Positions 5,818 through 21,883 are shown, numbered from the stretch's first letter. The stretch is 64,000 nt of DNA from a bacterium (GCA_963676395.1 OY781066.1:640001-704000), one strand, 5' to 3'. Notes: generated by a model not told the origin, from the sequence alone. Numbers and translations are program-made.

Positions 5818-8800
5818 TTACCAATTAAAAATATCCTCCGAAAATTTCATATGGAAGCTCAAGAAAAAATTATTATATAAATAATTTTGAGATCCAAAAT
5901 CAGGATCCTCAAATCGACTAATTTGATATCCTAAACCTACCTGCATGTTCTTGATAAGGTTATAGCCGACCTCAACCGACGAGCCTACTTTATCCTGACC
6001 TAATTGAGGAATATCAATAAATTTCACATCAGCAGCGGCATACCATTTTAAACTTAGGTCATATTCTAATCTTAAAGCAAAATATCTGGTTGTAATAATA
6101 TCTTTAAACTGAAGTATCTGTTCATCTACGATCATTCTATAGGCAAATGAAAACCCTACTTCTAATTTTTCCGTTGGCTGCCAATAATTATGTGCGTACA
6201 GAATAAATCTTTCATTATTTGTCTTATCGGCAACATGCGTATTCTTATCTTGCAAATATGCTACCTTGATCAACGAATTAAAGAAATCACTTCGCTCAGG
6301 ACGTATTGCAAGACCAATTTGATTGTCCGATTTAATAACATAATCATTAAATGATTCCAGATAATTGGTTTGCGTATACGTTAGCTTTGCAAGAAATGAT
6401 AAACCGCGCGCCAATTTAAAATCCATATTAAACATTACGTTCCATTGACGTGAATCACTCTTGGCTAACAATTCACCTTTAGCTGTCATTTTAAAAGGTA
6501 TTTCAGGCAAAAATTCAAATGAAGTTGATAGGGCCTGGTGATCAATCGTTGCAACCCTAAGGCTGTCGGCTACAGAAACATTCTCATAAGCTACGTTAAA
6601 GGTAATATTCTTACCGATCTTCCATTTATTCTTTAAACCGATGGTGGCACGGTTCCGATCGTCGCCACTGGTTCCACCAATTTCATATTTACCTGTTAAT
6701 TCGGTATTCTCTTTTACTTTTGAATCAATCCCAACAACAAATTGATTGGGTTTTTCACTGTTTTCTACACGCTTATATTTAGCTATTAAAGCTACTTTTT
6801 CGCTAATGGAATATGTTAAGCCAATACCGGTAAAAGTGGGCTTAGCCTGATCGGTCTTAATGAGGTTTTGCTCTCGTTCAACGGTTGCTTTGATTTTCTT
6901 GCCTAATTTATAATCAAGAGCTCCTTTGATCAATTGGGAACGCGTAGATTTCAGCGTATCACCGCTTATAGAGATCTTCTCGGCATTTTCATAAGCAACA
7001 TTTACATTTCCTTTTTCCAAAAACGATTGCTTATAAGTAATATTGAATGCTTTAGCGGTATTTTCATTTACAGTACCCACTTTGCTTAACTGGTTATAAT
7101 ATTCGGATTGTAATTGACCAAATTTCTCATTGCCCATTTTTAGACGAAAACCATATTTCTGAGAACCACTTTCAGAACTTTTACCTGTTTGAGACATATT
7201 TGTAAAAGACGTATCAATATTTCTATAGTATGCCGAAATATTAAAAAACTTCATAGGGTTAAATAAAATCTCTGCTTTATATGCATTACCTAAGATCTTT
7301 TCACCACTCATCTCAGGAGTAATTGACTGTGCAACTTCACTTTTTATTGACAGCCATTTAAATAAGGGCATTGTAGCATCTAAACCGTAAAGATAATAAT
7401 TTGATACTTGTTTTTCTTCCGCAACAAACAAAGCACCAAGATTCAATTTTTTAAAAAGTGTACCGTCGTATCTGATACCACCGATAGCTGTTTCTCGTTT
7501 TCCGGATTTGTATTCGTACGAAATAACAATATAAACAGGGTTGCCGTCATCATCTAAACTGGGGACAGGCTGCTTGAACATGATAGAACCATCTTCATAA
7601 TTAATGGTATAATCTTGATATCTGTTCATTTCTTTAGAACGAATAACAATTTCTGAACGATACTTATCTCTTGTCTGTATTTCGATCTTATCTGAAAGTT
7701 CAGTTACATAAGTTTGTGACAAGAAATAATAACCTGAAATACCTTCACCTCGGATCTCATCCAATTGCATTTCACGATCTGTAAAGGTACCAAAAGCTCT
7801 TATGGAATGTTCTTTATAATTAAGATCAGCAAGCAAACCGTTAAATGTTCTATTATACGCTGTAAATTCAGCTTGGTCTAATTTAGTATCAAAATCACCA
7901 TACATAACAGCCGATTCATTTTCTTCCAATTTAATAAATAATTCGGAATTACTTTGAGCATCATATTCAAGGGTAGAGGCATCACCATATACCGCATATT
8001 GCTCCGAAGGGTCAATATCCTGATAGAATTGATCACGATAATTTCGTTTAGAATCGTAAGAAGCGGTCAATTGATATTTATTAAGAATATTTCCTCTGGC
8101 GTAGAATGCTACTCGACCACCATACATAGCTAGATTATTATTAAAAACCTTTTCACGCCAAACTTCTACATCAGGTTCATTTTCATTATCAGGAAAATCC
8201 TGAAAATTTGATACCGCACCATTTACGGATCCAACAAACATAAAATCACCCTGAGGAGTTGTGTAACGAACCGGCATTTGAAAATATTCACCGCGAACTG
8301 AAACTTCAAGTATGGCCTTTGTAGCTTCTTTAGGAGATTTTACAGGGAATTTCAATTCCCCGTTTTGAACAGGTAATTGAACACCCGCTGCCATTATATC
8401 CATATCTTCCGAAGCAACTTTTCCATGTGTTAATTGTACGGTTGCAACCTTTAAGTTATCAAGCAAGTATCCCCACTCATCTCTAAATTCAAAGCTCAAT
8501 GTATCCATACTGTGTCCATCGGCCGGAATCTCTATCTTTTCTTTATAAGGAACCATGCTCTTTGGTGGCCCCATAACATGGATATTACGTTCCGAAGTAA
8601 AGATCTTATCTCGCGCACCCACTGATTCAACGCGGAACTTAACCGGCCCATCAGGGACATGAATATTGAGAAAATCATAAACACCGTCTACACGAATTGT
8701 TCCTTCGGATGCTAATTCATCGTTTACATATAATTTAGTATTTGCACCGGCTTTACCCATGACCGTAACGGCAACATGATGAAGATTTGTAACGCTGCCT

Positions 8801-8904
8801 TCCATAGGATTCAGGATAAGTGCCTGACCCAGGAGCGGGATAGCTCCCAAACAAAGGATCAATATGATCCAAAGAATTTTAAGCGTTTGTTTCTTCATAA
8901 TCAT
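5818..8904 (-). CDS. Large outer-membrane beta-barrel protein with N-terminal Ig-like domains
   Basis: Signal peptide, alternating amphipathic strands with many Y/F/G, YAVYGDAS motif, aromatic C-terminal strand; abuts the stop of the upstream gene. Confidence 0.75.
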   Translation of the reverse strand: MIMKKQTLKILWIILILCLGAIPLLGQALILNPMEGSVTNLHHVAVTVMGKAGANTKLYVNDELASEGTIRVDGVYDFLNIHVPDGPVKFRVESVGARDKIFTSERNIHVMGPPKSMVPYKEKIEIPADGHSMDTLSFEFRDEWGYLLDNLKVATVQLTHGKVASEDMDIMAAGVQLPVQNGELKFPVKSPKEATKAILEVSVRGEYFQMPVRYTTPQGDFMFVGSVNGAVSNFQDFPDNENEPDVEVWREKVFNNNLAMYGGRVAFYARGNILNKYQLTASYDSKRNYRDQFYQDIDPSEQYAVYGDASTLEYDAQSNSELFIKLEENESAVMYGDFDTKLDQAEFTAYNRTFNGLLADLNYKEHSIRAFGTFTDREMQLDEIRGEGISGYYFLSQTYVTELSDKIEIQTRDKYRSEIVIRSKEMNRYQDYTINYEDGSIMFKQPVPSLDDDGNPVYIVISYEYKSGKRETAIGGIRYDGTLFKKLNLGALFVAEEKQVSNYYLYGLDATMPLFKWLSIKSEVAQSITPEMSGEKILGNAYKAEILFNPMKFFNISAYYRNIDTSFTNMSQTGKSSESGSQKYGFRLKMGNEKFGQLQSEYYNQLSKVGTVNENTAKAFNITYKQSFLEKGNVNVAYENAEKISISGDTLKSTRSQLIKGALDYKLGKKIKATVEREQNLIKTDQAKPTFTGIGLTYSISEKVALIAKYKRVENSEKPNQFVVGIDSKVKENTELTGKYEIGGTSGDDRNRATIGLKNKWKIGKNITFNVAYENVSVADSLRVATIDHQALSTSFEFLPEIPFKMTAKGELLAKSDSRQWNVMFNMDFKLARGLSFLAKLTYTQTNYLESFNDYVIKSDNQIGLAIRPERSDFFNSLIKVAYLQDKNTHVADKTNNERFILYAHNYWQPTEKLEVGFSFAYRMIVDEQILQFKDIITTRYFALRLEYDLSLKWYAAADVKFIDIPQLGQDKVGSSVEVGYNLIKNMQVGLGYQISRFEDPDFGSQNYLYNNFFLSFHMKFSEDIFNW

Positions 8905-11900
8905 TTATTTTTCTATCGTGATCTCTATTGAATCATCAAATAGAATATCACCATTACTTTGAACCTGTTCTTTTTGTGAGAGGACTCTGATCTCTACGCG
9001 GCGGTTTGCCTCGCGTCCCTCAACTGTATTATTATCAGCTATTGGATATTCCCGTCCATAACCTTTCATTTCAATTCTGCTAGGTTGGATCAAATATTTC
9101 TTGATCAAAACCTCACGTACGGCTTCTGCACGACGTTCCGATAATACTTTCCCAACCTTCCAACTACCTACATTATCACTGTATCCTTCGATTCGTATTT
9201 TTGCCCAAGGCTGCCAACGCAAAAATTCTGCGATCTTTGCAATACCTTCATCCTCAACAGATTTGAGTTTTGGAGAGTGGAATTCGAAGTCGGAATCTTC
9301 TATAACTTCCATAAAAAGCAAACGATTTACTTCGGTTGAAATGGTATTCATCATCAATGGGGTTTGATGTAATCTACCATCTCCAATATGGTATTCAAGC
9401 ATTGATACGACAGAACTGTGTGAACCGATCTCTTCGGTTTCATTTGGCAATAACTGGAAACTCATTTCATGCTGTTTAGATTCTTTTAGATCACCCATAT
9501 CCCAAATAATTGCATTTTTACCTGCTATTTCAGGTTTATATGATGCAAAATCCAGTTTACTGACCGTTTCGTCCAGAATAAAACCTTTAGGTAGATATGT
9601 GTAGAATTTAACGTCCTTAAGTAAGATAGAACCGGTATAGTTCAGATCTAACTGAAGGTTGATCTTTTGTTTTTCATCTGGAGCTACGCGAACCGGGAAA
9701 AAAGTCAGCTTAATGATGCGTCGTCCATTCTTCTCAACTCTAGACAAATCTTTTAAGTACTTACATTTGATCCGCCGTTTTTCTATACCGAATCCCTGCA
9801 GTTCTTTACACATGACATCTACAGGCTGCTGTTCTGCTTTAATAGATTTATGCATCATATTGACATCAAAACCATTGCTTTTAAAAGCTTCTTCAACGAG
9901 AACCGTAACATCACTACGCCAATTAAGATATTTTTTAATGTCTATCAGCTCTTTGCTTTTTGATAACTCATAACGGTTATTATCATTATTATATTCAAGA
10001 ACTAATTTCATTGACCAAGGATCATAGGAAGTCATTCTTAATGCCCTAGTCATTGTTTCTTGTTCTATATCAACAACAGATCTTTCAGGAAGCTGTTTAT
10101 TGTTTTTAGGTTTTTCTGCTTTTGTTACAACTTTTTTCTCGGGTACAAAGTTTTCGCCACCGAGTACAAAATTCGCTTTAGCGATACCCGAGGCGGATAG
10201 CTTAACAAGTCTTGAATCCGTATCGCCAAGGAAATCACTTGAAGAAAGTAATACATGAGTATTCTTGGGCAAGGTAATTGGATTAATCTTAAGTACATGA
10301 GACCCTAAGCGTACACTTGGAATTGAGTATTTACCATATTCATCTGTAGTAACTCTTACACCATTTTCAGTAACTAATTCAACATTTTTAAAAGTCTCTT
10401 CATCATTATCGTGCATGTTGTTTCCATTGCGATCGTAAAATACTTTACCAAAGATCAAACCATAACCTTGCATCATACTTGGTTTAATAACAACCTTGGC
10501 AACAGCTATATTAGAAAGAACCTGATCACCTGTTTGGAAGTAACCTCGAGCAGATGCCATATTTTCATTCTCACCGAAGCTGCAATTCATACCGACAACG
10601 GTACGATACTTAATCTTTATACTTCCCCCCGGAGCAATGGAACGATCAACATGCCATAATAGTGTTGCCCGATTATCTTGCATAAGCATTTCGGGATCGG
10701 CAATAGTCTCGGTACCAATAATGGTACGACCTTCACGATATCTGAAACCGACAGGAAGTTTATCGGTCAGCAAAAAGTTTGTAATACCTTGATCTTCACT
10801 TTGATTTGTTACTTCAACGGTATATGTCAACACATCACCCAATTCGGCGATCTGTTTGTTTACAGTTTTTTTAACAACAAGAAATGGAGCAATAATACTT
10901 GAAGTTGCCTTTGTACGGAGATCATCGGCAGTATAAGCTGTATCATTTTCAGTATAGATATAAGCAGTATTCGTGATATCTTTTTCAATATTAGCCGTAA
11001 CTTCAACAAGAAAAGTAATTGAATCGTGCTGTTGAGCGTGCATACCATAACGAAGGAATGAAACTTCATTGCTAACCGGGTTATATCTATCAAAACGCAT
11101 ACCCATACCATTAACAAATGAACTTTCGATAAATTCAACTTCTTCGGGAAGCTGATCTACAAGATGAATAGTATCGGCGATCACATTATCCAATGTTTGG
11201 AAATAAATTGTGTACCTTAAACTATCACCCTTAACCACAATCTCTTTATCTACCCGTTTGTATACATCAAAAAGAATCGGCTCATTGTAGATATCGGCAT
11301 TAATCACATGAATACCGCTTTGATCTAAATTTACTTCCCGGGTTCCTGCATAGAAATATTCGCCTTTTCCAAAAATAGCATCGATCCTGTAATTGCCAAG
11401 ATCCAATTTATTAAAATAAAAGAAACCACTTGTATCAGTGCTCACAGAATCAATATATACGGGATTGTCATTATATTTATTCAGGGTGTTTTCACTAAGG
11501 TGGCTTAAGTAAATACTGACTCCCGATCTACGGATAGGATCACCTGACATATGATCAACGATCCTTCCAGATAAAGCAGCCGTATTTTTAACATCATCAA
11601 CCTGTCCTGTACCGGAATCGGTAACCTCAACTGGCTGATCAATCGTATGACTATCACCTTTTTTATCATTGAATTGAACTCTAATGATATAATCACCGGA
11701 ATGATAAAGAGCAATACTATAGTTACCGGATTCATCTGTGACAGCTGATCCGATAATATTACCACCCTGGATCAACAGTACTATAGCACCACTTACGGGC
11801 AATCCGGAATTATCACGAACAACACCGTTAACTCTTCGTGCATAAAATACAACATCGGTGGAGTCAGTTAATCTATCACCATTTACAGCAACAACTTCGG

Positions 11901-14148
11901 CACTGACCTTTGTTGGTACATAATCGGTAGATACAACCTCTGAACGCAAACGCATTTCGGCATAGCCGTTTGAAGTACTGACAATATGATTTGTACTTAA
12001 TAGAGTACCGTGTTCAGTATAAAAATGAACATCGGTACCATCGGATACTGGTCTCCCGGCACCATCAAATACACGGGCTGTTAATTGTGTATAATCTTCA
12101 CCATTTCCAATGACTGAATCAGGATTCGCTGTTAAATCTAATTTATAAGGCTTGATCTCAGTAATAAAAGTATTTGATTCAGAAACAACACCCAATGATT
12201 GAATGTTTGCTTTATTTTTAATCTCTTCGACCGCTATATGATCTTCTTTTATTTTAACATCAAGTTTAACACTACCTTGAGTATTAAGAGCTAAATGTCC
12301 TAAATTCCACATTACAGTATTATAAGTACTATTGTAATTATATGCGCCGGTTGCAGAGATAAATTTTAAGTGCTCACTTAAGGTATCAACAATAACGGTT
12401 GATGTTGCAACAGCATTTCCTTGATTAGCATAATTAAAAATATAGCGGATCGTATCACCAACCAATGCTTCATCGACTGAAGATTTAACCAGGCTTAATC
12501 CTGGAGCGGAAACAATTTCGACAAGGGATGTATCTTCTGCAGAAAATCCACAATCAGATTCCATTACAGCATTGTTATTTAACTCAGTACCGTTTACCAA
12601 AGGTTTATGAACCCTAACACTCAAGTTTAATGCTTGCGATGAGCTCATTAAAGCATCCACATCACCAAGAAACCATTGAATCACATGATCATGGGTATAA
12701 TAATGGTAGGTACCGGAAGCAGATATAAAATCGACATGAGCAGCTAAAGTATCATAAACCATTACATTCTTTGCTATACCATGTCCGCTATTAATATAAT
12801 CAATCGAATAATTTACCAGTTCACCCGCCTGCACTTTAGTGCTGTCGGCTGTTTTACTTATTTGTAATATAGGTGACTCAATTAAAATATCGGAATAAGC
12901 TGAAGCAGCCTTTCCTTCGAAACATACAATATCAGATTCACTGCGTAAATAACTTCCATCTGGAACACTTTTTTTAATTCTTACTGTAACTTCAACCGTA
13001 TCTTGTTTACCGGCACTCAATGGATCAGGATGAAAGGTGATATCATTATCATAAAGATCATAAATCGCACTCATGGAAGATGAAATATACTCCATATTCT
13101 TGTGCAAAGTTTCTTTCATTTCCAAACCGGTAGCGGCAGCATTCCCACGGTTTTCGATGAAGATTTGATATGTGACAGTATCTAAAGGTGAAGCATATGA
13201 AGGCATACTTCTTTGCATATAAAGATCAGGTTCACCTAATGATTCAGATACAAGTACTTTAGCGGATGTATACTTTTGTTCCCCCCCGGAACTTACGGAT
13301 GCAAAGTTAACAATATTGGTACCGGCCGGGACACCATCACGAACAATTACCATTACACTTCTTTCAACAATGTCACCCGGGTGAACATCACCTACAGACC
13401 ATGAAACGATGCCACTTTGTTCTTGCTTATCACCGCTTGCCGAAACAAAAACCAATTCTTGTGGCAAATCATCAAATAGCATAACATTATAGGCTGGAGC
13501 ATTACCCATGTTAAAAATGCGTATATTGTAATTAAGAGTTTCACCGGGCCTTGCACTGGGCTTATCAACTATTTTTTCTATACTAAGTGAAGCCTTATTC
13601 CCAATTAGAATACTTGCCGGTGCAGAAATACCCTTAACTTTTTCAGCAGTTTCGTAAACCGCCGTGTTTAAAATTTCTTCATCATGTGAAAAACCGGGAG
13701 GAACCATACAGAAGATATCAAACTGTAAAGCATTCCCGAAATTTAAACTAAGATTATCCCAGGTAAGAACATTAGCGTTCACCTGAGCTGGTGGATTAGA
13801 GCTAAGATAGGTTAATTCACTGGGTAAGGTATCGGAAACCGAAAATGAAGAAGCGATGAAATTACCCGTATTACTGATCTCAATATGATATTTTACTGTA
13901 TCCATGGGAAGGTAAACGGGTGAATCAACCGATTTAGAGATTGTTAAAAGATATGCCGGTGCAACAACAGTCGTTGTTTGCTCACTTGAAACATTATAAC
14001 GATAACCACCCGCATCAGAATAACTACCATGTGCGGTATTGGTGATCTCAGTTCCAAAAGGAGTTTGCGCATAAATGCAACTAATACTTGATACAACAAG
14101 TACCAGCAGCATATAAATTACCCGCAATGTCAGAAACCGGTCTCTCAT
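8905..14148 (-). CDS. Multi-DUF11 repeat protein with Big_1-like, carboxypeptidase-regulatory-like, SdrD-B-like and C-terminal OmpA domains
   Basis: About seven L-x-I-x-K...Y-x-I...N-x-G...D-x-LP...N-x-A repeats; GKVFYDRNGN; OmpA motifs IEGYSDNVG, LSERRAEAV, GYG, NRRVEI. Confidence 0.88.
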   Translation of the reverse strand: MRDRFLTLRVIYMLLVLVVSSISCIYAQTPFGTEITNTAHGSYSDAGGYRYNVSSEQTTTVVAPAYLLTISKSVDSPVYLPMDTVKYHIEISNTGNFIASSFSVSDTLPSELTYLSSNPPAQVNANVLTWDNLSLNFGNALQFDIFCMVPPGFSHDEEILNTAVYETAEKVKGISAPASILIGNKASLSIEKIVDKPSARPGETLNYNIRIFNMGNAPAYNVMLFDDLPQELVFVSASGDKQEQSGIVSWSVGDVHPGDIVERSVMVIVRDGVPAGTNIVNFASVSSGGEQKYTSAKVLVSESLGEPDLYMQRSMPSYASPLDTVTYQIFIENRGNAAATGLEMKETLHKNMEYISSSMSAIYDLYDNDITFHPDPLSAGKQDTVEVTVRIKKSVPDGSYLRSESDIVCFEGKAASAYSDILIESPILQISKTADSTKVQAGELVNYSIDYINSGHGIAKNVMVYDTLAAHVDFISASGTYHYYTHDHVIQWFLGDVDALMSSSQALNLSVRVHKPLVNGTELNNNAVMESDCGFSAEDTSLVEIVSAPGLSLVKSSVDEALVGDTIRYIFNYANQGNAVATSTVIVDTLSEHLKFISATGAYNYNSTYNTVMWNLGHLALNTQGSVKLDVKIKEDHIAVEEIKNKANIQSLGVVSESNTFITEIKPYKLDLTANPDSVIGNGEDYTQLTARVFDGAGRPVSDGTDVHFYTEHGTLLSTNHIVSTSNGYAEMRLRSEVVSTDYVPTKVSAEVVAVNGDRLTDSTDVVFYARRVNGVVRDNSGLPVSGAIVLLIQGGNIIGSAVTDESGNYSIALYHSGDYIIRVQFNDKKGDSHTIDQPVEVTDSGTGQVDDVKNTAALSGRIVDHMSGDPIRRSGVSIYLSHLSENTLNKYNDNPVYIDSVSTDTSGFFYFNKLDLGNYRIDAIFGKGEYFYAGTREVNLDQSGIHVINADIYNEPILFDVYKRVDKEIVVKGDSLRYTIYFQTLDNVIADTIHLVDQLPEEVEFIESSFVNGMGMRFDRYNPVSNEVSFLRYGMHAQQHDSITFLVEVTANIEKDITNTAYIYTENDTAYTADDLRTKATSSIIAPFLVVKKTVNKQIAELGDVLTYTVEVTNQSEDQGITNFLLTDKLPVGFRYREGRTIIGTETIADPEMLMQDNRATLLWHVDRSIAPGGSIKIKYRTVVGMNCSFGENENMASARGYFQTGDQVLSNIAVAKVVIKPSMMQGYGLIFGKVFYDRNGNNMHDNDEETFKNVELVTENGVRVTTDEYGKYSIPSVRLGSHVLKINPITLPKNTHVLLSSSDFLGDTDSRLVKLSASGIAKANFVLGGENFVPEKKVVTKAEKPKNNKQLPERSVVDIEQETMTRALRMTSYDPWSMKLVLEYNNDNNRYELSKSKELIDIKKYLNWRSDVTVLVEEAFKSNGFDVNMMHKSIKAEQQPVDVMCKELQGFGIEKRRIKCKYLKDLSRVEKNGRRIIKLTFFPVRVAPDEKQKINLQLDLNYTGSILLKDVKFYTYLPKGFILDETVSKLDFASYKPEIAGKNAIIWDMGDLKESKQHEMSFQLLPNETEEIGSHSSVVSMLEYHIGDGRLHQTPLMMNTISTEVNRLLFMEVIEDSDFEFHSPKLKSVEDEGIAKIAEFLRWQPWAKIRIEGYSDNVGSWKVGKVLSERRAEAVREVLIKKYLIQPSRIEMKGYGREYPIADNNTVEGREANRRVEIRVLSQKEQVQSNGDILFDDSIEITIEK

Positions 14149-14172
14149 CTCTCTCTCGGTTTTACATTAAAC

Positions 14173-14195
14173 CCTGCCCCGAAAATCGGGGCAGG
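14173..14195 (-). terminator. Intra-operon hairpin after the 559-aa gene
   Basis: CCTGCCCCGA-aaa-TCGGGGCAGG, weak U-tract on minus strand. Confidence 0.6.
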
Positions 14196-14231
14196 ATTTT
14201 ATTTCAAAGATAACGTTAAGCGTTAAACTTA

Positions 14232-15911
14232 TTATTGAATTTTAGTTTTAAATTCAACGGTTGTTGAAGCGCCGGCACCCAAAGTAGGAAGTTCGAAGAC
14301 AACGGTATTTTTTTCAAGTTGTGCTTCATCTTCATCCTTGGCATCTGTTTTTGCTACACCACCCAGTTTCATAGTACCTCTTTGATACCATGTGTTTTCA
14401 GGGACATCATCATCAATTCTTAGATCTGTTGCAACACCTGTACCAACGTTTAAAATAGTAATGGTGTATGTCAGAACTGTACCTGGAGGTTGGTTACCTG
14501 TAGGCGATACGGCTTTTAAAAGGGATAGGATAGGAGCCGTAACAGTGATTGTTAATTCACCTTCGTCTGACTCATCTTCATTTCCTTCTGAAGTGGCTGT
14601 AAGGGTCATAACAGAAACAACTTCATCAGGTGTACCTGCCGGAATCTGGCCTTTGGCAACAAGATATACAACTGCACCCTGAGCCATTGTAGCTGTTTGA
14701 GCATCTTCTAGTTCTTCTTCATCTTCATCGATCCGACCGTTTTCATTGGCGTCCAAATAGAATTCCCAATCTGGGATCAAATCACAGACCTCAGAAATAT
14801 TCATTTTGTCGGGACCATTACCTTTATTGGTCACCGTAACTGCGTAATAAACATAATCTGAGGGGTCACCGACAGTTACCTGATCGGAACCTACTGCAAC
14901 AAACCAGATCTGAGCTACTGTTAACGTAGCACCACTGGCATTAGCTGATACAGCGAGCTGATCTTCACCTAAAATATTCTTCCAAAGCAATACGGCTGCA
15001 TTGGCAATGACTGTATTTACAGGAACATTATCATTGATTACAATCTGGAAAGTTGCTGTTGCACTTGAGCCACTGCTGATTTCATCAAACATGAAATTGG
15101 CAACTGAAGGAACGCCTTCGATAAATTCAGCGTCATCATCACCTTTATCGTCTGATTGTGCTACCCCATTGATCTTAAGAGATCCGGCTACATATGACGT
15201 GTTTACAGCAATACCTGCCGCAAATACAACATCCTGAGCATCTGCCGAACCTGTATTGGTTACTGCCAATGTATAAGTAACAACATCACCCGGTTGAGGA
15301 TCATTGTTATCAGCAGTCATCGTAAAGGTATACTCTGAAGTTTTTACTCGTACGCCCATGTATGCGGCTGTTTTGATCTCATTATTAAAACGTGATTCCA
15401 AACCAAGTGTAATATTTGCTGATGAAGCATCTTCTCCCGAAATATTTTCAACAACGACGACAATGTTGTATGACGTGTACATTGCCATATCAGGAGTTTC
15501 TCTGACTTCTTCTTCGCCTTCATCTACAACGCCATTTCCGTTGGCATCATGATATACGGTTGAAACAAATTCATCTCCTGTAGGACTTTGAAGAGCATTG
15601 CTGATCTTATATGAATCAACACCGTTTCCCGTATTAACGATCGACATTGGAAATGATACTGTTCCGTATAAAACCATATTCTGGAAAGCTTCCATCGGCG
15701 ATAAATCCACACCGGCAACCTGTGATACGATCGTTGTTACTGTGTTTGAGGTTACGCTGGCCATGGCATTGCCATTGGCATCACGGTAGTTACCTGTTGC
15801 AAAGTTGCTGATCTCTGTGCCTGCCGGTGTTGGTAGAGCAACCATTGCAAAGGCAACACTCGACAACATTATCGTTGCCAAAAGTGCGACTAATACATGT
15901 TTAAATTTCAT
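14232..15911 (-). CDS. Secreted DUF11-repeat protein, candidate major fibre subunit (copy 1)
   Basis: Signal peptide, TPAGTEISNFA N-terminus, internal DUF11/Ig-like repeats, D-x-N-x-NG Ca-binding-like loops, C-terminal truncated DUF11. Confidence 0.85.
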   Translation of the reverse strand: MKFKHVLVALLATIMLSSVAFAMVALPTPAGTEISNFATGNYRDANGNAMASVTSNTVTTIVSQVAGVDLSPMEAFQNMVLYGTVSFPMSIVNTGNGVDSYKISNALQSPTGDEFVSTVYHDANGNGVVDEGEEEVRETPDMAMYTSYNIVVVVENISGEDASSANITLGLESRFNNEIKTAAYMGVRVKTSEYTFTMTADNNDPQPGDVVTYTLAVTNTGSADAQDVVFAAGIAVNTSYVAGSLKINGVAQSDDKGDDDAEFIEGVPSVANFMFDEISSGSSATATFQIVINDNVPVNTVIANAAVLLWKNILGEDQLAVSANASGATLTVAQIWFVAVGSDQVTVGDPSDYVYYAVTVTNKGNGPDKMNISEVCDLIPDWEFYLDANENGRIDEDEEELEDAQTATMAQGAVVYLVAKGQIPAGTPDEVVSVMTLTATSEGNEDESDEGELTITVTAPILSLLKAVSPTGNQPPGTVLTYTITILNVGTGVATDLRIDDDVPENTWYQRGTMKLGGVAKTDAKDEDEAQLEKNTVVFELPTLGAGASTTVEFKTKIQ

Positions 15912-15929
15912 CTGTCTCTCCTTAAAATA

Positions 15930-16418
15930 TTATTTTACTGTTACTTCAAATTCGAGCTGCTTACTTTCTTTCGGTGTAAGCGATTTCTTCAATTCCCATT
16001 GTACGTGTGTAACCATATCGGGGGAAGCGGCTTTTTTAACCATTTTACCATTTTTGTCTTTTATCTCATACTTAGGAGGCCATGCCTGATAAGTTCTGCC
16101 ACCATCAATAGAAAAACTTACATCTGCATGTTTACCTTTGGCCGAATTAGGTTTATACGATGTACCGGCTGGAATAGGATCCGTGATCACTGGTTCTGTC
16201 ATGGTTCCTGTTCCTATATTCTGTGCCCAAACCGTATATTTGATCACATCACCCGGTCGATAGGCAATTGCTTCTGTGCCCATTCTTTCTGCCTGACTCA
16301 TGTTCATTTTCTTTTCTGCGATGCGCAGTTCAAGCTTTGGGCTACCTTGTGCAAATGCTGCAGTACCAAAAACTAAAGCTACCAACAGAACGAGGACTGT
16401 TAATTTACGTAGTTTCAT
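15930..16418 (-). CDS. Small secreted single-DUF11 protein (copy 1)
   Basis: Signal peptide; PGDVIKYTVWAQNIG, ITDPIP, FSIDGG, ends LEFEVTVK. Confidence 0.85.
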   Translation of the reverse strand: MKLRKLTVLVLLVALVFGTAAFAQGSPKLELRIAEKKMNMSQAERMGTEAIAYRPGDVIKYTVWAQNIGTGTMTEPVITDPIPAGTSYKPNSAKGKHADVSFSIDGGRTYQAWPPKYEIKDKNGKMVKKAASPDMVTHVQWELKKSLTPKESKQLEFEVTVK

Positions 16419-16430
16419 TCTCTCTCCTTT

Positions 16431-17195
16431 TTATTTGACTACTACTTTATATATTACATTACCACTGCCACCGGCCTCTAAATTACCATTTAATGTAAAA
16501 AGCAAATCAGTAACAGGTAAGGTCTCTTCGTTATTATATGTTAATCCGCCATCATGGCTGTAAGTGACAGTCATATTATTTCCAGCAGCCGTACCGGGGA
16601 CATAATCCGTATTACTGCCTATCGTTTCATAGATCATTACAGAAGTTGCATCACCATCACCGCTATTTACATACGTAAGCGTATAAGTAAGCTGCTCTCC
16701 CGGAAGTCCGGTACTTTTATCTACAGATTTATTCAAAACAAGAAGCGGCGCTGTTGTACCCTGAACATTAACAGTTGCAGTAGGACCTATTTGTGTTTGA
16801 GAAATTCGATATCCCGTAACTCCGACATATACACCGAAATCACCCGTTTTTAAACTGGTAGTCGCTTTAAAATTAATCACTACCTTTTCTCCACTCCACA
16901 TAAGGAACCAATTAGTCCATGTTAACTGGTTTCCGTTGATATATGGATTTGAGTTTGTAGCACCATAAGTAGAGTTATTTACATAAGTAAATCCATCGGG
17001 TAAAACGACTACAGTTTGTGTTGGCATAATCCAATTTCGTCCGGTATTCCTTATCGTTAGAACATAAGTTACTTCTTCTTGAGGAGCTACTGCAGAAGGT
17101 GTTGCTGTTAAAGATAATGAGACGGCAGCAAAAAGGCTTGTAAGCGAAAAAGCCACTAGCAGAACTACAATTTTTTTCATAATTGTTTTTCTCAT
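16431..17195 (-). CDS. Secreted two-domain DUF11 protein
   Basis: Signal peptide; VTYVLTIRNTG..LPDGFTY and LVLNKSVDK..PGEQLTYTL repeats. Confidence 0.85.
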   Translation of the reverse strand: MRKTIMKKIVVLLVAFSLTSLFAAVSLSLTATPSAVAPQEEVTYVLTIRNTGRNWIMPTQTVVVLPDGFTYVNNSTYGATNSNPYINGNQLTWTNWFLMWSGEKVVINFKATTSLKTGDFGVYVGVTGYRISQTQIGPTATVNVQGTTAPLLVLNKSVDKSTGLPGEQLTYTLTYVNSGDGDATSVMIYETIGSNTDYVPGTAAGNNMTVTYSHDGGLTYNNEETLPVTDLLFTLNGNLEAGGSGNVIYKVVVK

Positions 17196-17262
17196 CTTCT
17201 CTCTCTTTTATCTCTCTCTTAATGAAATAAGATGTGCAATCGCTCAAGTAAGTATAATAAAG

Positions 17263-17334
17263 GGTCTCTCAACTCCCTTTATGTTAAGCCTGATCGGTTA
17301 TTATAACCGGACTGCTCACGACCTTATTTTCAAT
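17263..17334 (-). ncRNA. Candidate structured 5' leader RNA, copy 1
   Basis: 72-nt element homologous to 21804-21875, directly downstream of a predicted promoter. Confidence 0.45.
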
Positions 17335-17342
17335 TCTATACA

Positions 17343-17371
17343 ATAATAGCCAAGATCTTCTAATGATGCAA
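17343..17371 (-). promoter_or_regulatory. Predicted sigma70-type promoter TTGCAT-N17-TATTAT
   Basis: Same architecture at 21884-21912. Confidence 0.55.
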
Positions 17372-17664
17372 TATTTTTCTCTTAATTAAGAATTAATAAT
17401 TTCTTTACTAATTCTTAACTTTTCCAACACCATCTTGTACAACTACCTCAAACAGTATACTATATATAGATTCAACATCAAATTCTGCTGTTTCCGATTG
17501 ATATTCTATCACTTTTTCTTCATTGAAATCTTTCATTCACTCTGTCTTTTCGCATATTTTTTGAGACTTACCTCAGTGGCACATATTATATCTTGAATAC
17601 CCCACACCCTTTAGCCAAAAGCAATGCAATTGCTATATTACAACAACACACTAAGCTTAATTCT

Positions 17665-17781
17665 TTAGATATTGGAAGTTAAGTTCCTACTCAGAATTGG
17701 GTGTGACAGCAGGATAAGATGGATAGCTCCAAGAGCCCCACCTTGTCCATGCGCCATGTTTGATTTTTGATTGTCTCTCAT
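17665..17781 (-). CDS. 38-aa small protein A (not in ORF track): MRDNQKSNMAHGQGGALGAIHLILLSHPILSRNLTSNI
   Basis: Ungapped 15/38 identity with ORF at 22071-22187, with synonymous codon differences; GA-rich RBS. Confidence 0.7.
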   Translation of the reverse strand: MRDNQKSNMAHGQGGALGAIHLILLSHPILSRNLTSNI

Positions 17782-17840
17782 GTCTTCAATCTCTCTCATC
17801 ATTCACACTAGTCTATGTCTTCATCATTCATTCTAATATC

Positions 17841-17929
17841 ATATTACACAGGTTGTTATAGGATTCCTAATTAATTATCTTTAATAAACACTTAAGAATA
17901 ATTCAAGGTAGATTTAAGGAATATTCAAG
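17841..17929 (-). promoter_or_regulatory. Promoter cassette A: four T(T/C)AAG boxes at 11-bp period plus TAGGAA-N17-TAATAT
   Basis: Boxes at 17892, 17903, 17914, 17925; homologous to cassettes at 20567 and 22250. Confidence 0.65.
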
Positions 17930-18004
17930 AAGAAAATTGCTAATCGGATTTCAATACTTATCATTCGAGATTCCCGCACTATCTCTCAATTCCTATCTTT
18001 ATAT

Positions 18005-18030
18005 AAAAAGCCTCGATTTCTCGAGGCTTT
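18005..18030 (-). terminator. Intrinsic terminator after 559-aa copy 2
   Basis: AAAAAGCCTCGA-tttc-TCGAGGCTTT. Confidence 0.75.
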
Positions 18031-18057
18031 CTCATTGTATTAAAGTTCTTAAGTTTA

Positions 18058-19737
18058 TTATTGGATTTTAGTTTTAAATTCAACGGTTGTTGAAGCGCCG
18101 GCATCCAAAGTAGGAAGTTGAAAAACAACGGTATTTTCTTCAAGTTGTGCTTCATCCTCATCCTCGGCATCTGTTTTTGCTACACCACCCAGTTTCATAG
18201 TACCTCTTTGATACCATGTATTTTCAGGAACATCATCATCAATTCTTAGATCTGTTGCAACACCTGTACCAACGTTTAAAATAGTAATGGTGTATGTCAG
18301 AACTGTACCTGGAGGTTGGTTACCTGTAGGCGATACGGCTTTTAAAAGGGATAGGATAGGAGCCGTAACAGTGATTGTTAATTCACCTTCGTCTGACTCA
18401 TCTTCATTTCCTTCTGAAGTGGCTGTAAGGGTCATAACAGAAACAACTTCATCAGGTGTACCTGCCGGAATCTGGCCTTTGGCAACAAGATATACAACTG
18501 CACCCTGAGCCATTGTAGCTGTTTGAGCATCTTCTAGTTCTTCTTCATCTTCATCGATCCGACCGTTTTCATTGGCGTCCAAATAGAATTCCCAATCTGG
18601 GATCAAATCACAGACCTCAGAAATATTCATTTTGTCGGGACCATTACCTTTATTGGTCACCGTAACTGCGTAATAAACATAATCTGAGGGGTCACCGACA
18701 GTTACCTGATCGGAACCTACTGCAACAAACCAGATCTGAGCTACTGTTAACGTAGCACCACTGGCATTAGCTGATACAGCGAGCTGATCTTCACCTAAAA
18801 TATTCTTCCAAAGCAATACGGCTGCATTGGCAATGACTGTATTTACAGGAACATTATCATTGATTACAATCTGGAAAGTTGCTGTTGCACTTGAGCCACT
18901 GCTGATTTCATCAAACATGAAATTGGCAACTGAAGGAACGCCTTCGATAAATTCAGCGTCATCATCACCTTTATCGTCTGATTGTGCTACCCCATTGATC
19001 TTAAGAGATCCGGCTACATATGACGTGTTTACAGCAATACCTGCCGCAAATACAACATCCTGAGCATCTGCCGAACCTGTATTGGTTACTGCCAATGTAT
19101 AAGTAACAACATCACCCGGTTGAGGATCATTGTTATCAGCAGTCATCGTAAAGGTATACTCTGAAGTTTTTACTCGTACGCCCATGTATGCGGCTGTTTT
19201 GATCTCATTATTAAAACGTGATTCCAAACCAAGTGTAATATTTGCTGATGAAGCATCTTCTCCCGAAATATTTTCAACAACGACGACAATGTTGTATGAC
19301 GTGTACATTGCCATATCAGGAGTTTCTCTGACTTCTTCTTCGCCTTCATCTACAACGCCATTTCCGTTGGCATCATGATATACGGTTGAAACAAATTCAT
19401 CTCCTGTAGGACTTTGAAGAGCATTGCTGATCTTATATGAATCAACACCGTTTCCCGTATTAACGATCGACATTGGAAATGATACTGTTCCGTATAAAAC
19501 CATATTCTGGAAAGCTTCCATCGGCGATAAATCCACACCGGCAACCTGTGATACGATCGTTGTTACTGTGTTTGAGGTTACGCTGGCCATGGCATTGCCA
19601 TTGGCATCACGGTAGTTACCTGTTGCAAAGTTGCTGATCTCTGTGCCTGCCGGTGTTGGTAGAGCAACCATTGCAAAGGCAACACTCGACAACATTATCG
19701 TTGCCAAAAGTGCGACTAATACATGTTTAAATTTCAT
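18058..19737 (-). CDS. Secreted DUF11-repeat protein, candidate major fibre subunit (copy 2)
   Basis: Identical to 14232-15911 except K/E, K/E, E/Q and G/D near the C-terminus. Confidence 0.85.
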   Translation of the reverse strand: MKFKHVLVALLATIMLSSVAFAMVALPTPAGTEISNFATGNYRDANGNAMASVTSNTVTTIVSQVAGVDLSPMEAFQNMVLYGTVSFPMSIVNTGNGVDSYKISNALQSPTGDEFVSTVYHDANGNGVVDEGEEEVRETPDMAMYTSYNIVVVVENISGEDASSANITLGLESRFNNEIKTAAYMGVRVKTSEYTFTMTADNNDPQPGDVVTYTLAVTNTGSADAQDVVFAAGIAVNTSYVAGSLKINGVAQSDDKGDDDAEFIEGVPSVANFMFDEISSGSSATATFQIVINDNVPVNTVIANAAVLLWKNILGEDQLAVSANASGATLTVAQIWFVAVGSDQVTVGDPSDYVYYAVTVTNKGNGPDKMNISEVCDLIPDWEFYLDANENGRIDEDEEELEDAQTATMAQGAVVYLVAKGQIPAGTPDEVVSVMTLTATSEGNEDESDEGELTITVTAPILSLLKAVSPTGNQPPGTVLTYTITILNVGTGVATDLRIDDDVPENTWYQRGTMKLGGVAKTDAEDEDEAQLEENTVVFQLPTLDAGASTTVEFKTKIQ

Positions 19738-19755
19738 CTGTCTCTCCTTAAAATA

Positions 19756-20244
19756 TTATTTTACTGTTACTTCAAATTCGAGCTGCTTACTTTCTTTCGG
19801 TGTAAGCGATTTCTTCAATTCCCATTGTACGTGTGTAACCATATCGGGGGAAGCGGCTTTTTTAACCATTTTACCATTTTTGTCTTTTATCTCATACTTA
19901 GGAGGCCATGCCTGATAAGTTCTGCCACCATCAATAGAAAAACTTACATCTGCATGTTTACCTTTGGCCGAATTAGGTTTATACGATGTACCGGCTGGAA
20001 TAGGATCCGTGATCACTGGTTCTGTCATGGTTCCTGTTCCTATATTCTGTGCCCAAACCGTATATTTGATCACATCACCCGGTCGATAGGCAATTGCTTC
20101 TGTGCCCATTCTTTCTGCCTGACTCATGTTCATTTTCTTTTCTGCGATGCGCAGTTCAAGCTTTGGGCTACCTTGTGCAAATGCTGCAGTACCAAAAACT
20201 AAAGCTACCAACAGAACGAGGACTGTTAATTTACGTAGTTTCAT
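19756..20244 (-). CDS. Small secreted single-DUF11 protein (copy 2)
   Basis: Identical to 15930-16418. Confidence 0.85.
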   Translation of the reverse strand: MKLRKLTVLVLLVALVFGTAAFAQGSPKLELRIAEKKMNMSQAERMGTEAIAYRPGDVIKYTVWAQNIGTGTMTEPVITDPIPAGTSYKPNSAKGKHADVSFSIDGGRTYQAWPPKYEIKDKNGKMVKKAASPDMVTHVQWELKKSLTPKESKQLEFEVTVK

Positions 20245-20391
20245 TCTCTCTCCTTTTTATTTGACTACCAGTTTGTCTTCTTTATTAGACTCTTTTCAAC
20301 TTCAAACATATACTTTATTAAATAATAGCAAAAAAATTAAAAGCAAGCGCATAGACATGGTTACAAAACCATATCAAGAAAAATAAAGCTC

Positions 20392-20508
20392 TTAATTTTT
20401 CAGTTCTAGATTACTATTAAGATATATTGAATTCCCCTTTGAGGGAAACACTCTATCATATCTTATAGTAAAATCACAATCCCATGTTGTTGTTTGAATT
20501 TGATACAT
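20392..20508 (-). CDS. Possible 38-aa small protein C: MYQIQTTTWDCDFTIRYDRVFPSKGNSIYLNSNLELKN
   Basis: Same length and same distance from the promoter cassette as peptides A and B, but little sequence similarity. Confidence 0.25.
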   Translation of the reverse strand: MYQIQTTTWDCDFTIRYDRVFPSKGNSIYLNSNLELKN

Positions 20509-20566
20509 CTCTTCATTCTCTCTCCATTCACTCACTTCACATATCTTCGACTATCTCTCTATATGC

Positions 20567-20655
20567 ATATTACACAGCAAGTTAAGTATTTCCTAATTAA
20601 TTATAATTAATAAACACTTAAGTTTAATTAAAGATCAGCTTACAAAATAATTAAC
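20567..20655 (-). promoter_or_regulatory. Promoter cassette C: TTAAG-like boxes at 11-bp period plus TAGGAA-N17-TAATAT
   Basis: Boxes at 20618, 20629, 20640, 20651; shares TTCCTAATTAATTAT..TAATAAACACTTAAG with cassette A. Confidence 0.65.
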
Positions 20656-20689
20656 ATCATCATATCAATATCAGCTTAAAATTCATCAA

Positions 20690-21065
20690 TTGTACTTTAA
20701 CTCGATGCTAATAACTACCACACTGCTGTCGACGTCCATTTCGTTATTAACAGCAAAATCACTTCTATATTCCGGATAATTTTACTGATCCTTGCTTATA
20801 TATTATGTTCTCAGATATTTTATCTTCAATAATAACATCAGTTAAATTTCCATTTAGGGTCATGATAATAAATTGTGTATAGGATGACATCTCAATATCT
20901 AATAACAGTTTTATAGTGTTGGGGGACTATTAGAGTGCTATTGGCATTACGAGAATTTCCGTCACAACATTAAGGCTCTCTGTAACCACAACAAAATCTG
21001 CAAAAAACTGTCATTAATACAGAAAGAATAAAAAGGAACATCCTTTAGATCTTTATTCTCTCATC
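20690..21065 (-). pseudogene. Decayed DUF11 gene
   Basis: Frameshifted fragments DVILYTIYY and GNLTDVIIEDKISENIIYKQGSVKLSG match the 559-aa C-terminal domain (ATDLRIDDDVPENTWYQRGTMKLGG); boundaries approximate. Confidence 0.6.
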
Positions 21066-21080
21066 ATATTTATTCTTGAT

Positions 21081-21569
21081 TTATTTTACAATAACCTGGA
21101 ATTCCAGCTCCTTGCTTGCATTAGGAGCTAAAGATTTTTTCAATTCCCATTGAATATGTGTAATCATATCCGGTGAAGCCATCTTTTTAACGGTTTTTCC
21201 ATCTCTATCCTTAATTTCGTATTTTGGTGGCCAGGATTGGTATACTTTTCCACCATCAATAGAAAATACGATATCTGCAAAACTTCCTTTTGCACTGTGA
21301 GGCTTATAGGAAGTCCCCGTAGGAATAGGATCACTTATCACCGGCTCGGTCATCATGCCTTTTCCTACATTTTGGGCCAATACGGCATAGCGTATCATAT
21401 CACCGGGTTTGCAGGTAACTTTAACCTTACCCATTTTTTCTGCTTGAGTCATATTGATCTTGGTCTCAATAATAGTCAATTCCAACTTTGGTCTGTCCTG
21501 AGCAAAAGAAAACACAGAATAAAACAAAACCAAAACCATTATAAATGGTAATTTTTTGCCTGTCTTCAT
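21081..21569 (-). CDS. Small secreted single-DUF11 protein (diverged third paralog)
   Basis: Same length and clearly alignable to the 162-aa pair (WPPKYEIKD, WELKKSL). Confidence 0.85.
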   Translation of the reverse strand: MKTGKKLPFIMVLVLFYSVFSFAQDRPKLELTIIETKINMTQAEKMGKVKVTCKPGDMIRYAVLAQNVGKGMMTEPVISDPIPTGTSYKPHSAKGSFADIVFSIDGGKVYQSWPPKYEIKDRDGKTVKKMASPDMITHIQWELKKSLAPNASKELEFQVIVK

Positions 21570-21650
21570 TCATCAACTCCGATCTTCATTCATTCTTGAT
21601 CATTTACATATGATCAACATACCATATTGCCGGAAATGTGCTTAGTCAAA

Positions 21651-21749
21651 TTACTTTTTAGAAAAAAGCGCCGTATAAACTGCCATAATCAGTGAACTGA
21701 CCACTGCTGAAGTAAAACTGCTAAATTTTTCTTTCATATCTTGGATCAT
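21651..21749 (-). CDS. Possible 32-aa hydrophobic peptide MIQDMKEKFSSFTSAVVSSLIMAVYTALFSKK
   Basis: GAGGAGAGAGAAGG purine tract upstream; alternative ATG at 21737; single hydrophobic helix. Confidence 0.35.
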   Translation of the reverse strand: MIQDMKEKFSSFTSAVVSSLIMAVYTALFSKK

Positions 21750-21803
21750 CCTTCTCTCTCCTCTTTGATACGGACTTGTTATTCCAACATTACTAAGCAT
21801 TCC

Positions 21804-21875: not shown

Positions 21876-21883
21876 GTTAAACA

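Follow-up and report, generated by a model that had tools for sequence, protein, structure and literature searches.

A CLIPPER domain divided between chains as the likely joint of a proposed self-locking fibre in two-membrane bacteria

Results and Discussion

We analysed a gene cassette at positions 5818 to 21569 of a 64,000-nucleotide stretch of bacterial DNA (GCA_963676395.1, OY781066.1:640001-704000), which is called the window below and from whose first letter all coordinates are counted. The cassette encodes proteins of 559, 1747 and 254 residues, named here after their proposed roles as shaft, base and tip, together with 162-residue proteins and a 1028-residue outer-membrane barrel. An immunoglobulin (Ig)-like domain of the DUF11 type is divided between these chains: the shaft starts with the last strands of the domain (the donor) and ends with a domain that stops before them (the acceptor), the base has only a donor, and the tip and the 162-residue proteins have only an acceptor. 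An earlier reading, made from the sequence alone, had proposed a fibre in which the donor of one subunit completes the acceptor of another, and every test run here favoured this split-domain fibre. We consider it likely that the cassette builds an enzyme-free fibre in which donor strands join the subunits and isopeptide bonds lock them. The parts on which the argument turns are the following; all cassette genes lie on the minus strand.

8905..14148, minus strand: base, 1747 residues, with signal peptide, N-terminal donor, seven DUF11/CLIPPER domains plus Big_1, CarboxypepD_reg and SdrD_B-type domains, and a C-terminal OmpA-like domain (Pfam, NCBIfam)
9001..9288, minus strand: OmpA-like domain of the base, peptidoglycan-binding type, residues 1621-1716 (PF00691, E = 1.6e-17, 64.1 bits)
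13954..14067, minus strand: donor half-domain of the base, residues 28-65, QTPFGTEITNTA...TTTVV, with the bond-type Asn; no partner acceptor in the same protein
14232..15911, minus strand: shaft copy a, 559 residues, with signal peptide, donor (25-66), three intervening Ig-like domains and truncated acceptor (456-559)
14235..14546, minus strand: acceptor CLIPPER domain of the shaft, with Lys466 and Asp501 and without the last two strands
15714..15839, minus strand: donor of the shaft, two strands with Asn36 (GTEISNFA ... SNTVTTIV)
15930..16418, minus strand: 162-residue protein copy a, a single truncated CLIPPER-like domain, acceptor-only, with Lys37 and Asp80
16431..17195, minus strand: tip, 254 residues, with signal peptide, one complete DUF11 domain and truncated acceptor (145-254; Lys, Glu); no donor

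Boundaries of the divided domain

The base includes VMVIVRDGVPAGTNIVNFA, and its mature N-terminus begins QTPFGTEITNTA. After the end of its signal peptide (...SSVAFA), the shaft begins MVALPTPAGTEISNFA and continues to SNTVTTIV, with the Asn at residue 36; at the other end it carries LSLLKAV (K466) and IDDDVP (D501) and terminates with VEFKTKIQ. The 254-residue protein contains LVLNKSV and IYET and terminates with VIYKVVVK, and the 162-residue proteins end with LEFEVTVK or LEFQVIVK. The strings quoted in the sequence-only reading were all found at their places in the translations.

The Pfam model of DUF11 (PF01345; 114 positions, cut-off 24.6 bits) matched the base with 263.8 bits (E = 1.9e-79, seven stretches), the shaft with 55.4, the tip with 50.2 and 162-residue copy a with 26.2 bits, all above the cut-off, while copy c stayed below it with 21.5 bits. 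NCBIfam TIGR01451 was above its own cut-off for the base, the shaft, the tip and the 162-residue proteins. Furthermore, residues 1092-1185 of the base matched the isopeptide-forming domain TIGR04226 with 68.3 bits (cut-off 30). A match to Peptidase_M73, the TasA/camelysin family, in an internal domain of the shaft was below cut-off (13.4 vs 22.5 bits). Six of the seven DUF11 domains of the base extend to positions 98-107 of the Pfam model; the last domain of the shaft covers positions 4-84, its match ending one residue short of the stop, and the last domain of the tip covers positions 2-81.

We also built our own domain model of 124 positions, for which 25 near-complete domains were taken from this locus and from its relatives. 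In this model, the final shaft domain occupied positions 3-88, and shaft residues 22-44 occupied positions 86-108 (independent E-value 0.062, weak alone). The same cut recurred in 120 family members, in which 118 of 119 C-terminal fragments ended at position 88 or before and 103 of the 119 N-terminal fragments with a match began at positions 82-99; the remaining 16 matched the next domain instead. Each of the three 162-residue proteins is a single domain ending at position 89. With hhalign, the acceptor profile was aligned to columns 5-91 of the 130 columns of the complete domain (probability 98.3%, E = 2.4e-14) and the donor profile to columns 90-107 (E = 0.0012, probability 19%). The boundaries given by Pfam, by our model and by hhalign thus agree that the shaft has a donor start and an acceptor end. 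In the shaft, the tip and the 162-residue proteins, the terminal domain stops at profile positions 81-89, and the strands it misses are found at the N-termini of the shaft and the base.

The partition also held for the other subunits as it had been proposed. The base is donor-only, with an N-terminal half-domain that carries the Asn, no partner acceptor, and an OmpA-like domain at its C-terminus, and the 254-residue protein is acceptor-only. The assignment of the latter as the tip stood in this respect; its position as the sole distal end did not, as three acceptor-only 162-residue proteins had been overlooked.

Conservation of the partition among homologous loci

The names on the homologues point to Marinimicrobia/Neomarinimicrobiota. 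Twelve relatives, mostly of the same genus and one from another family of the phylum, keep the gene order, which is tip, a protein of ~160 residues, shaft, base of 1400-2250 residues and barrel of ~1030 residues. The tips of these relatives are mostly ~550-610 residues long, and their last ~230 residues match the 254-residue protein, which lacks the variable head that the others bear; no relic of a head was found by tblastn upstream of the 254-residue gene. Tip heads in general vary and have no Pfam family or contain Big_12, Big_5, SdrD_B or extra DUF11 domains.

A wider scan, with one genome per species and a 16-row shaft alignment as the query, gave 67 loci. Among the taxa are Neomarinimicrobiota, Latescibacterota, Lentisphaerota (including Oligosphaera ethanolica DSM 24202), Desulfobacterota and syntrophs (including Desulfatibacillum alkenivorans DSM 16219 and Smithella), Gemmatimonadaceae of the Gemmatimonadota, and Beta- and Gammaproteobacteria (Steroidobacteraceae, Burkholderiales, Thiobacillus denitrificans RG). 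The shaft was intact in 50 of the 67; the other 17 had contig ends, frameshifts or a miscalled start. By criteria some of which are pattern-based and loose, the product of the gene downstream of the shaft opens with a donor in 45 of 48 testable loci (the model detected 35 of these, a loose pattern alone the other 10), and no such product ends with an acceptor. Just before the shaft, 41 of 47 testable loci have a small gene of the 162-residue family; its product has an acceptor-type end in 37 and never carries a donor. Two genes upstream of the shaft, 30 of 35 loci have an acceptor-only tip, and in several others it follows the barrel gene. This survey had been set beforehand as a possible refutation of the fibre, and the donor-only/acceptor-only partition was found to hold across it. 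No further gene family was conserved beside the cassette, the best non-core family being present at 13 of the 67 loci. A search of the Atlas with the 162-residue protein returned only unnamed clusters of ~160-176 residues.

Among the loci are also some from bins labelled Clostridia, Bacillota or Firmicutes (L049, L053, L079, L080 and L094), with the barrel present in L049 and L094. These carriers are either diderm Firmicutes or mis-binned contigs.

The isopeptide triad and its conservation

A profile of six complete domains of the base matched PDB entry 9IFR (E = 1.1e-7), and the K of L-x-I-x-K, the D of V-x-D-x-L-P and the N of I-x-N-x-A were aligned with the Lys, Asp and Asn of 9IFR. One complete base domain searched alone against the PDB sequences with phmmer gave no match. 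The domain in 9IFR has been named CLIPPER and is reported to contain an intramolecular isopeptide triad (K715/D748/N806), the bond of which confers thermal and protease stability (PMC12617251). By this alignment, the Asn of the donor is the predicted bond-forming Asn of CLIPPER, and the triad is split between chains at each kind of joint.

The triad is strongly conserved. Across 98 aligned homologues of the shaft (28-66% identity), K466 and D501 are invariant (98/98), N36 is kept in at least 90%, and I34 and A38 at its sides are invariant as well. The donor segment within the N-terminal 40 residues is indeed the best-conserved part of the shaft in a family that is otherwise ~30-50% identical. 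Across the loci, the Asn is present in 48 of 50 shaft donors and in 38 of 39 base donors of other loci, and among 38 tip acceptors, 37 have the Lys and all have Asp or Glu. The internal complete CLIPPER domain of this shaft has lost both Lys and Asp, so that the constraint appears strongest on the split domain. The 162-residue family is more variable: of 53 members, 45 have the Lys and only 37 the acidic residue, which is replaced by Asn in 9, so that some joints cannot be autocatalytic.

The shaft also has two acidic loops, DANGNGVVDEGEEE (residues ~120-135, first intervening domain) and DANENGRIDEDEEE (residues ~385-400, third), which look like calcium-binding loops. In the 98-sequence alignment, Y120, D122 and N124 are nearly invariant and D387 is invariant.

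Structure predictions of the joint

A two-chain model of the shaft acceptor (residues 452-559) with the shaft donor (residues 23-70) had interaction prediction scores from aligned errors (ipSAE) of 0.76, 0.76 and 0.70, compared to 0.01 for the best of three controls. Of 157 solved complexes, 116 reach the mark set for this score, as do 2 of 215 mismatched pairs; the mark is only a rough guide here since our own family alignment was supplied. Contacts agreed by at least 95% between runs, and the predicted local distance difference test (pLDDT) of the partner was 81-83. Donor residues 34-45 and 53-66 lie in the predicted interface, in which residues 38-44 pair with residues 494-501 of the acceptor and residues 55-58 with its strand A (residues 464-466). 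Among the modelled contacts are those of D501 with residues 38 and 39, of K466 with residues 55 and 58, and of residue 464 with residue 38. In this model the donor fragment is inserted in the acceptor fragment, and the N36-K466 pair is absent among the 25 pairs listed. We infer that N36 is placed beside K466 from the contact of residues 464 and 38, which are two residues from each and on the same faces, together with the homology to 9IFR.

An AlphaFold2 model of the full-length shaft monomer had a pLDDT of 87.5 and a predicted template modelling score (pTM) of 0.59. Residues 31-60 were modelled as strands with pLDDT 92-95, and the C-terminal domain had values of 92-97. Foldseek searches with the shaft model returned only generic tandem-Ig matches, such as integrin legs and ciliary proteins.

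The giant barrel and its fusion to the base

The gene after the base encodes the barrel:

5818..8904, minus strand: barrel, 1028 residues, outer-membrane protein with signal peptide, two Ig-like domains (~29-215) and a beta-barrel (~222-1019) (AlphaFold2 model)

The model of this protein (pLDDT 80.4, pTM 0.66) has strands between residues 222 and 1019, ~39 of them long by manual count, plus an insert of short strands at ~377-447; the sequence ends ...FSEDIFNW. No Pfam or NCBIfam family was above cut-off, and a profile of the barrel matched PDB sequences only in its Ig-like part (positions 76-210), in glycoside hydrolase family 2 (GH2) enzymes. The best matches by fold were the FimD usher (Z 13.7; root mean square deviation (RMSD) 9.6 Å over 330 residues), SlpA of Deinococcus (13.1), PapC (11.2) and LptD (10.9). 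FimD and SlpA are tied within one Z unit and all of these matches have RMSD values of 7-11 Å, so the likeness to ushers is suggestive only. Foldseek gave SlpA, SprA and LptD at a template modelling score of ~0.2.

The barrel family is large, comprising 6035 representative clusters at a threshold of E ≤ 0.001, of which 2682 pass the stricter E ≤ 1e-30. Among the best 150 representatives, 106 are fusions of at least 1300 residues with a C-terminal barrel. DUF11-type domains are present in 97 of these 106 fusions, and an N-terminal donor was detected by the model in 44 and by loose pattern only in 45 more; an OmpA-like domain occurs in 17 of the 150, before or after the barrel. In the 67-locus survey, 22 of 38 complete genes downstream of the shaft have the barrel in the same polypeptide (2 of them also with an OmpA-like domain), 12 have an OmpA-like domain and no barrel, and 16 have the barrel encoded by a gene of its own that comes next. 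Outside Marinimicrobia, fusion of base and barrel is the usual arrangement. Base and barrel are thus linked, as one polypeptide in many loci. In some loci of Latescibacterota and Deltaproteobacteria, donor, stalk, OmpA-like domain and barrel follow one another in this order in a single polypeptide (L043, 11803-19158; L046, 11784-17468; L073, 9-5723).

Proposed assembly of the fibre and alternative explanations

The genome of origin is a single contig of 2,335,625 bases with 95.29% completeness, in which the 559-residue protein is encoded at this locus only. A search of this genome for sortases (PF04203) gave no match, as the sequence-only reading had supposed. PapD-type chaperones were also not found (PF00345, PapD_N; matches were detected in E. 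coli as a control), nor was any match by sequence to the Usher family (PF00577), and the C-termini of the cassette proteins that were read carry no LPXTG motif.

We propose the following assembly. All subunits would be exported by Sec signal peptides; a signal-peptide-like N-terminal segment could be read in the translations of all six protein kinds, and the shaft, the tip and the 162-residue proteins have AxA-type cleavage sites and no lipobox Cys. The acceptor would be a C-terminal CLIPPER domain that has the Lys, the catalytic Asp or Glu and strands A-E but breaks off before the last two; the donor would be this missing pair of strands, which includes the Asn and follows the signal-peptide cleavage site directly. 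Insertion in trans of one subunit's donor into the acceptor of another would complete the Ig-like fold and bring Asn36 to Lys466 and Asp501, with formation of an autocatalytic Lys-Asn isopeptide bond as inside an intact CLIPPER domain. Since the shaft has both a donor and an acceptor, it could be chained head to tail, presumably with more than one shaft per fibre. The tip and the 162-residue proteins, being acceptor-only, could occupy the distal end only, and the donor-only base the proximal end only. The base would root the fibre through its OmpA-like domain plus the 1028-residue barrel, or through direct fusion to a barrel, and the fibre would reach the outside of the cell by passage through the barrel. 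Growth might occur by usher-like addition at the base, or outward from an autotransporter-like exported root that captures secreted shafts, with the tip or a 162-residue protein as the cap. The 162-residue protein may be a minimal cap that sets the number or length of fibres, or a periplasmic holder of donors.

Several observations weigh against this assembly. The single donor matches are weak (the E-value of 0.062 for the shaft, a family median of 2.6, and the hhalign probability of 19%), and Pfam gave no match for isolated donor fragments of 39 and 44 residues; the case for a split domain rests on consistent position and conservation, not on any one E-value. The N36-K466 contact is missing from the pairs listed for the complex model. 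If the 162-residue protein locks covalently onto shaft donors, fibres would be limited to very few subunits. The OmpA-like domain is expected to be periplasmic, and with its location before or after the barrel in fused forms, the crossing of the outer membrane by folded subunits is hard to place. Finally, the two-fragment model cannot separate cis from trans, and its score may reflect likeness to intact Ig/CLIPPER folds, since re-association may be predicted for any split Ig domain; the monomer model fits a donor folded back on the acceptor of the same chain.

These last points bear on a closed circular permutation, in which the N-terminal strands of the shaft complete its own C-terminal domain to give a ring-like monomer and no polymer, and only the tip or 162-residue protein and the base are joined in trans. 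The confident strands and C-terminal domain in the monomer model (pTM 0.59) would be compatible with such a ring, and the type 1 pilin FimA is reported to exist as a self-complemented monomer or as a polymer (PMC6615685). However, donor-only bases and acceptor-only tips and 162-residue proteins are conserved, so complementation in trans is needed in the system anyway. As in tandem CLIPPER arrays, the chain passes without a break from the last donor strand to the domain after it, and likewise from the third domain to the acceptor; to close, the four domains would probably have to turn through 360 degrees. An intramolecular lock would furthermore be a dead end for the neighbours that need the donor and the acceptor of the shaft. 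We regard a closed shaft as unlikely.

The joints could instead be made by donor strands without a bond between chains, the Lys, Asp and Asn serving folding or stability. The isopeptide bond here is a prediction from sequence and model, the incomplete residues of the 162-residue family are in line with non-covalent joints, and oligomers of the N35A mutant of the clostridial protein BsaA were reported to be stable in sodium dodecyl sulfate without the bond until heated (10.1101/2024.11.04.621531). Against this stand the invariance of K466 and D501 and the near-invariance of N36, the bond formed by the three equivalent positions in 9IFR, and the retention of the triad at the split domain together with its loss from the internal domain of the shaft. 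Purely non-covalent joints seem improbable to us.

A further possibility is an envelope tether, that is, a scaffold in the periplasm or from the outer membrane to peptidoglycan, with the barrel as a mere membrane anchor. The OmpA-like C-terminus of the base, for which PF00691 scored well above its cut-off of 27.2 bits, is predicted to bind peptidoglycan. In fused forms this domain adjoins the barrel, so that this part is expected to be periplasmic, and the secretion route proposed above is itself conjectural. However, bases with 4-10 Ig-like domains and tips with variable heads (Big_12, Big_5) resemble adhesins and are probably too long for the periplasm, and fibrillar adhesins have been described in which a CLIPPER stalk is combined with an OmpA-like anchor (PMC12617251). 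The ~39 long strands of the barrel also exceed the needs of an anchor. A tether is thus quite unlikely.

Ordinary, independent DUF11 adhesins whose odd termini are domain-boundary noise are very improbable and already disfavoured: DUF11 repeats are common in surface proteins and the single donor matches are statistically weak, but the N-terminal 40 residues are the best conserved of the shaft, the same end strand recurs in 118 of 119 fragments, gene order is fixed across phyla, and the complex scored 0.76 against 0.01 for the best control.

We lean slightly towards a broader proposal, namely that a natural Tag/Catcher-like split of CLIPPER, by which subunits polymerise and are covalently locked, defines a distinct and widespread class of enzyme-free pili in two-membrane bacteria. 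Such pili would have a fixed order of cap or adhesin, shaft and root, a barrel of ~39 strands as both anchor and conduit, and a protein of ~170 residues as a donor-holding chaperone or a length-setting cap.

Comparison with known systems

The proposed fibre resembles chaperone-usher pili (type 1 and P), in which each subunit supplies an N-terminal segment that completes the incomplete Ig fold of its neighbour; the possible counterpart here is the sequence complementarity and the fragment model (0.76 vs 0.01), which fit insertion in cis as well as in trans. The proposed roles also correspond, with an acceptor-only tip, a shaft that has both parts and a last subunit as the root, and both systems have a hairpin after the gene of the major subunit and a barrel of large size in the outer membrane. 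FimD and PapC rank high among the fold matches of the present barrel, but SlpA and LptD match about as well, at RMSD values of ~10 Å. Unlike in chaperone-usher systems, a PapD-type chaperone and an Usher family match are missing from the cassette and the genome, the donor has two strands instead of one, and the acceptor is the C-terminal domain of a multi-domain subunit. In addition, the joint here carries an isopeptide triad that becomes complete only once two chains have met, and the present barrel far exceeds the usher in size and in many loci forms one chain with the root subunit.

Sortase-assembled pili of Gram-positive bacteria are likewise covalent isopeptide polymers of Ig-like subunits; the present cassette has neither sortase nor LPXTG motif. 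The locus appears to be a natural counterpart of SpyTag/SpyCatcher and DogTag/DogCatcher, split isopeptide domains that rejoin and lock themselves. Those Tag/Catcher pairs are man-made splits of CnaB-type domains. Compared on the lipobox alone, the system differs from the type V pili of Bacteroidota, as the lipobox Cys is absent from the shaft, the tip and the 162-residue proteins. The fused forms share with type Va autotransporters an N-terminal passenger-like stalk and a C-terminal barrel. The type Va barrel has 12 strands, as opposed to ~39 here, the Pfam search of the cassette proteins gave no autotransporter family match, and, unlike in type Va, the passenger here ends in a half-domain meant for another protein.

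Among described proteins, the CLIPPER adhesin B9T28_05395 of Acinetobacter silvestris (9IFR) is of the same domain family, with the Lys, Asp and Asn aligned, and also has a CLIPPER stalk and an OmpA-like anchor (PMC12617251). As described there, its domain and bond are within one chain, and it is a single polypeptide with its own head; in the present locus a cut between strands leaves the two parts of the terminal domain on different proteins, and separate genes encode head, shaft and root. The thread of Sulfolobus acidocaldarius, Saci_0406, joins its subunits head to tail by donor strand complementation and an apparent isopeptide bond between them, and no sortase is known for it (PMC9715654). 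It differs in being archaeal, without outer membrane, of another fold family and, as described, without tip, root and barrel genes. Its bond joins Asn57 to the alpha-amino group of Asp24 in subunit n+2 and is not a Lys-Asn triad between neighbours (PMC9715654). BsaA of Clostridium perfringens (TasA family) is described as assembling by 'donor-strand exchange and lock', with N-terminal insertion and a spontaneous isopeptide bond between chains formed by an Asn-Glu-Lys triad, and mutants in the three triad residues lose oligomers (10.1101/2024.11.04.621531). The same report presents it as a Gram-positive matrix fibre of TasA/camelysin fold, secreted with SipW and type IV pilus genes, with neither a barrel nor partners that carry a donor or an acceptor alone. 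A match of the cassette to the sfz/sfb stalk-formation cluster of iron oxidisers was considered and rejected, since those genes are described as encoding BcsB-like, glycosyltransferase and GH10 proteins (PMC8250860).

A full-text literature search, with subscription journals outside its coverage, found no paper on a split DUF11/CLIPPER fibre. The novelty lies in the split CLIPPER domain as a joint, in a cassette of four parts in fixed order, in the giant barrel with its frequent fusion to the root, and in the presence of the system in many two-membrane phyla. To our knowledge, intermolecular isopeptide fibres have so far comprised sortase pili, archaeal threads and one clostridial matrix protein. 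If the proposal is true, two-membrane bacteria build covalent fibres without sortase, chaperone or usher, by halving a domain that crosslinks itself. The system is common, as judged from the 2682 clusters of the barrel family at the stricter threshold, and some carriers are cultured and could be tested at the bench. It could explain how uncultured particle-attached and syntrophic bacteria attach to surfaces or partners, and could yield a family of natural, orthogonal Tag/Catcher pairs and a giant-barrel export or anchoring machine for study.

Gene organization and neighbourhood

The cassette genes form three blocks that resemble transcription units. Block 1 consists of 162-residue copy c (21081-21569). 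Block 2 contains 162-residue copy b (19756-20244) and shaft copy b (18058-19737), followed by a terminator (18003-18029). Block 3 contains the tip (16431-17195), 162-residue copy a (15930-16418), shaft copy a (14232-15911), a hairpin, the base (8905-14148) and the barrel (5818-8904). The features other than those given above are the following.

14173..14195, minus strand: G+C-rich hairpin between the genes of shaft copy a and the base, followed by GTTTAATG on the coding strand
18003..18029, minus strand: canonical-looking intrinsic terminator 3' of shaft copy b, AAGCCTCG-AGAAAT-CGAGGCTT, then a T run (read from sequence)
18058..19737, minus strand: shaft copy b, 559 residues, four of which differ from copy a, all in the acceptor domain
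19756..20244, minus strand: 162-residue protein copy b, identical to copy a
21081..21569, minus strand: 162-residue protein copy c, a divergent paralogue, DNA 72.6% identical over 303 nucleotides

The hairpin and the duplication of the shaft gene had both been pointed out from the sequence, and both are present. The pair of the 162-residue and shaft genes is repeated in tandem (14223-16442 and 18049-20268; 2220 nucleotides, 99.46% identity), and all 12 mismatches fall at 14227-14403, the last ~180 nucleotides at the 3' end of the shaft gene, where they cause four changes (K/E, K/E, E/Q and G/D) in loops of the acceptor domain. This confinement of the mismatches suggests a recent duplication, or gene conversion with a sharp boundary. 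The hairpin has 10 pairs, 8 of them G-C, and the U tract after it (GTTTAATG) is weak; it may be an attenuator or a stabiliser of mRNA rather than a terminator. Together with the terminator of its own that shaft copy b has, a hairpin of this kind would be compatible with a higher level of shaft than of base transcript. Rfam gave no family at gathering score over 13900-22600; a Phe_leader match on the terminator after shaft copy b was below threshold (36.3 bits vs 55).

Three unusually long non-coding spacers of ~830-880 nucleotides (17196-18057, 20245-21080 and 21570-22452) lie upstream of the blocks in this 2.3-Mb genome, and two of them share a 132-nucleotide segment (17779-17907 and 20506-20633, 77% identity). 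An open reading frame of 41 codons at 20765-20890 is weakly similar to the middle of a DUF11 domain (tblastn E = 0.012-0.032 against shaft and tips) and may be the relic of a lost subunit gene between 162-residue copies c and b. On the plus strand, divergent from the fibre genes, 22453-24756 encodes a 767-residue PAS/histidine-kinase/receiver hybrid, which is a possible regulator. Just downstream of the barrel gene, the gene at 4746-5543 (minus strand) reads, judged by eye, as a pyrroline-5-carboxylate reductase (ProC), an unrelated housekeeping function, and the cassette would thus end there.

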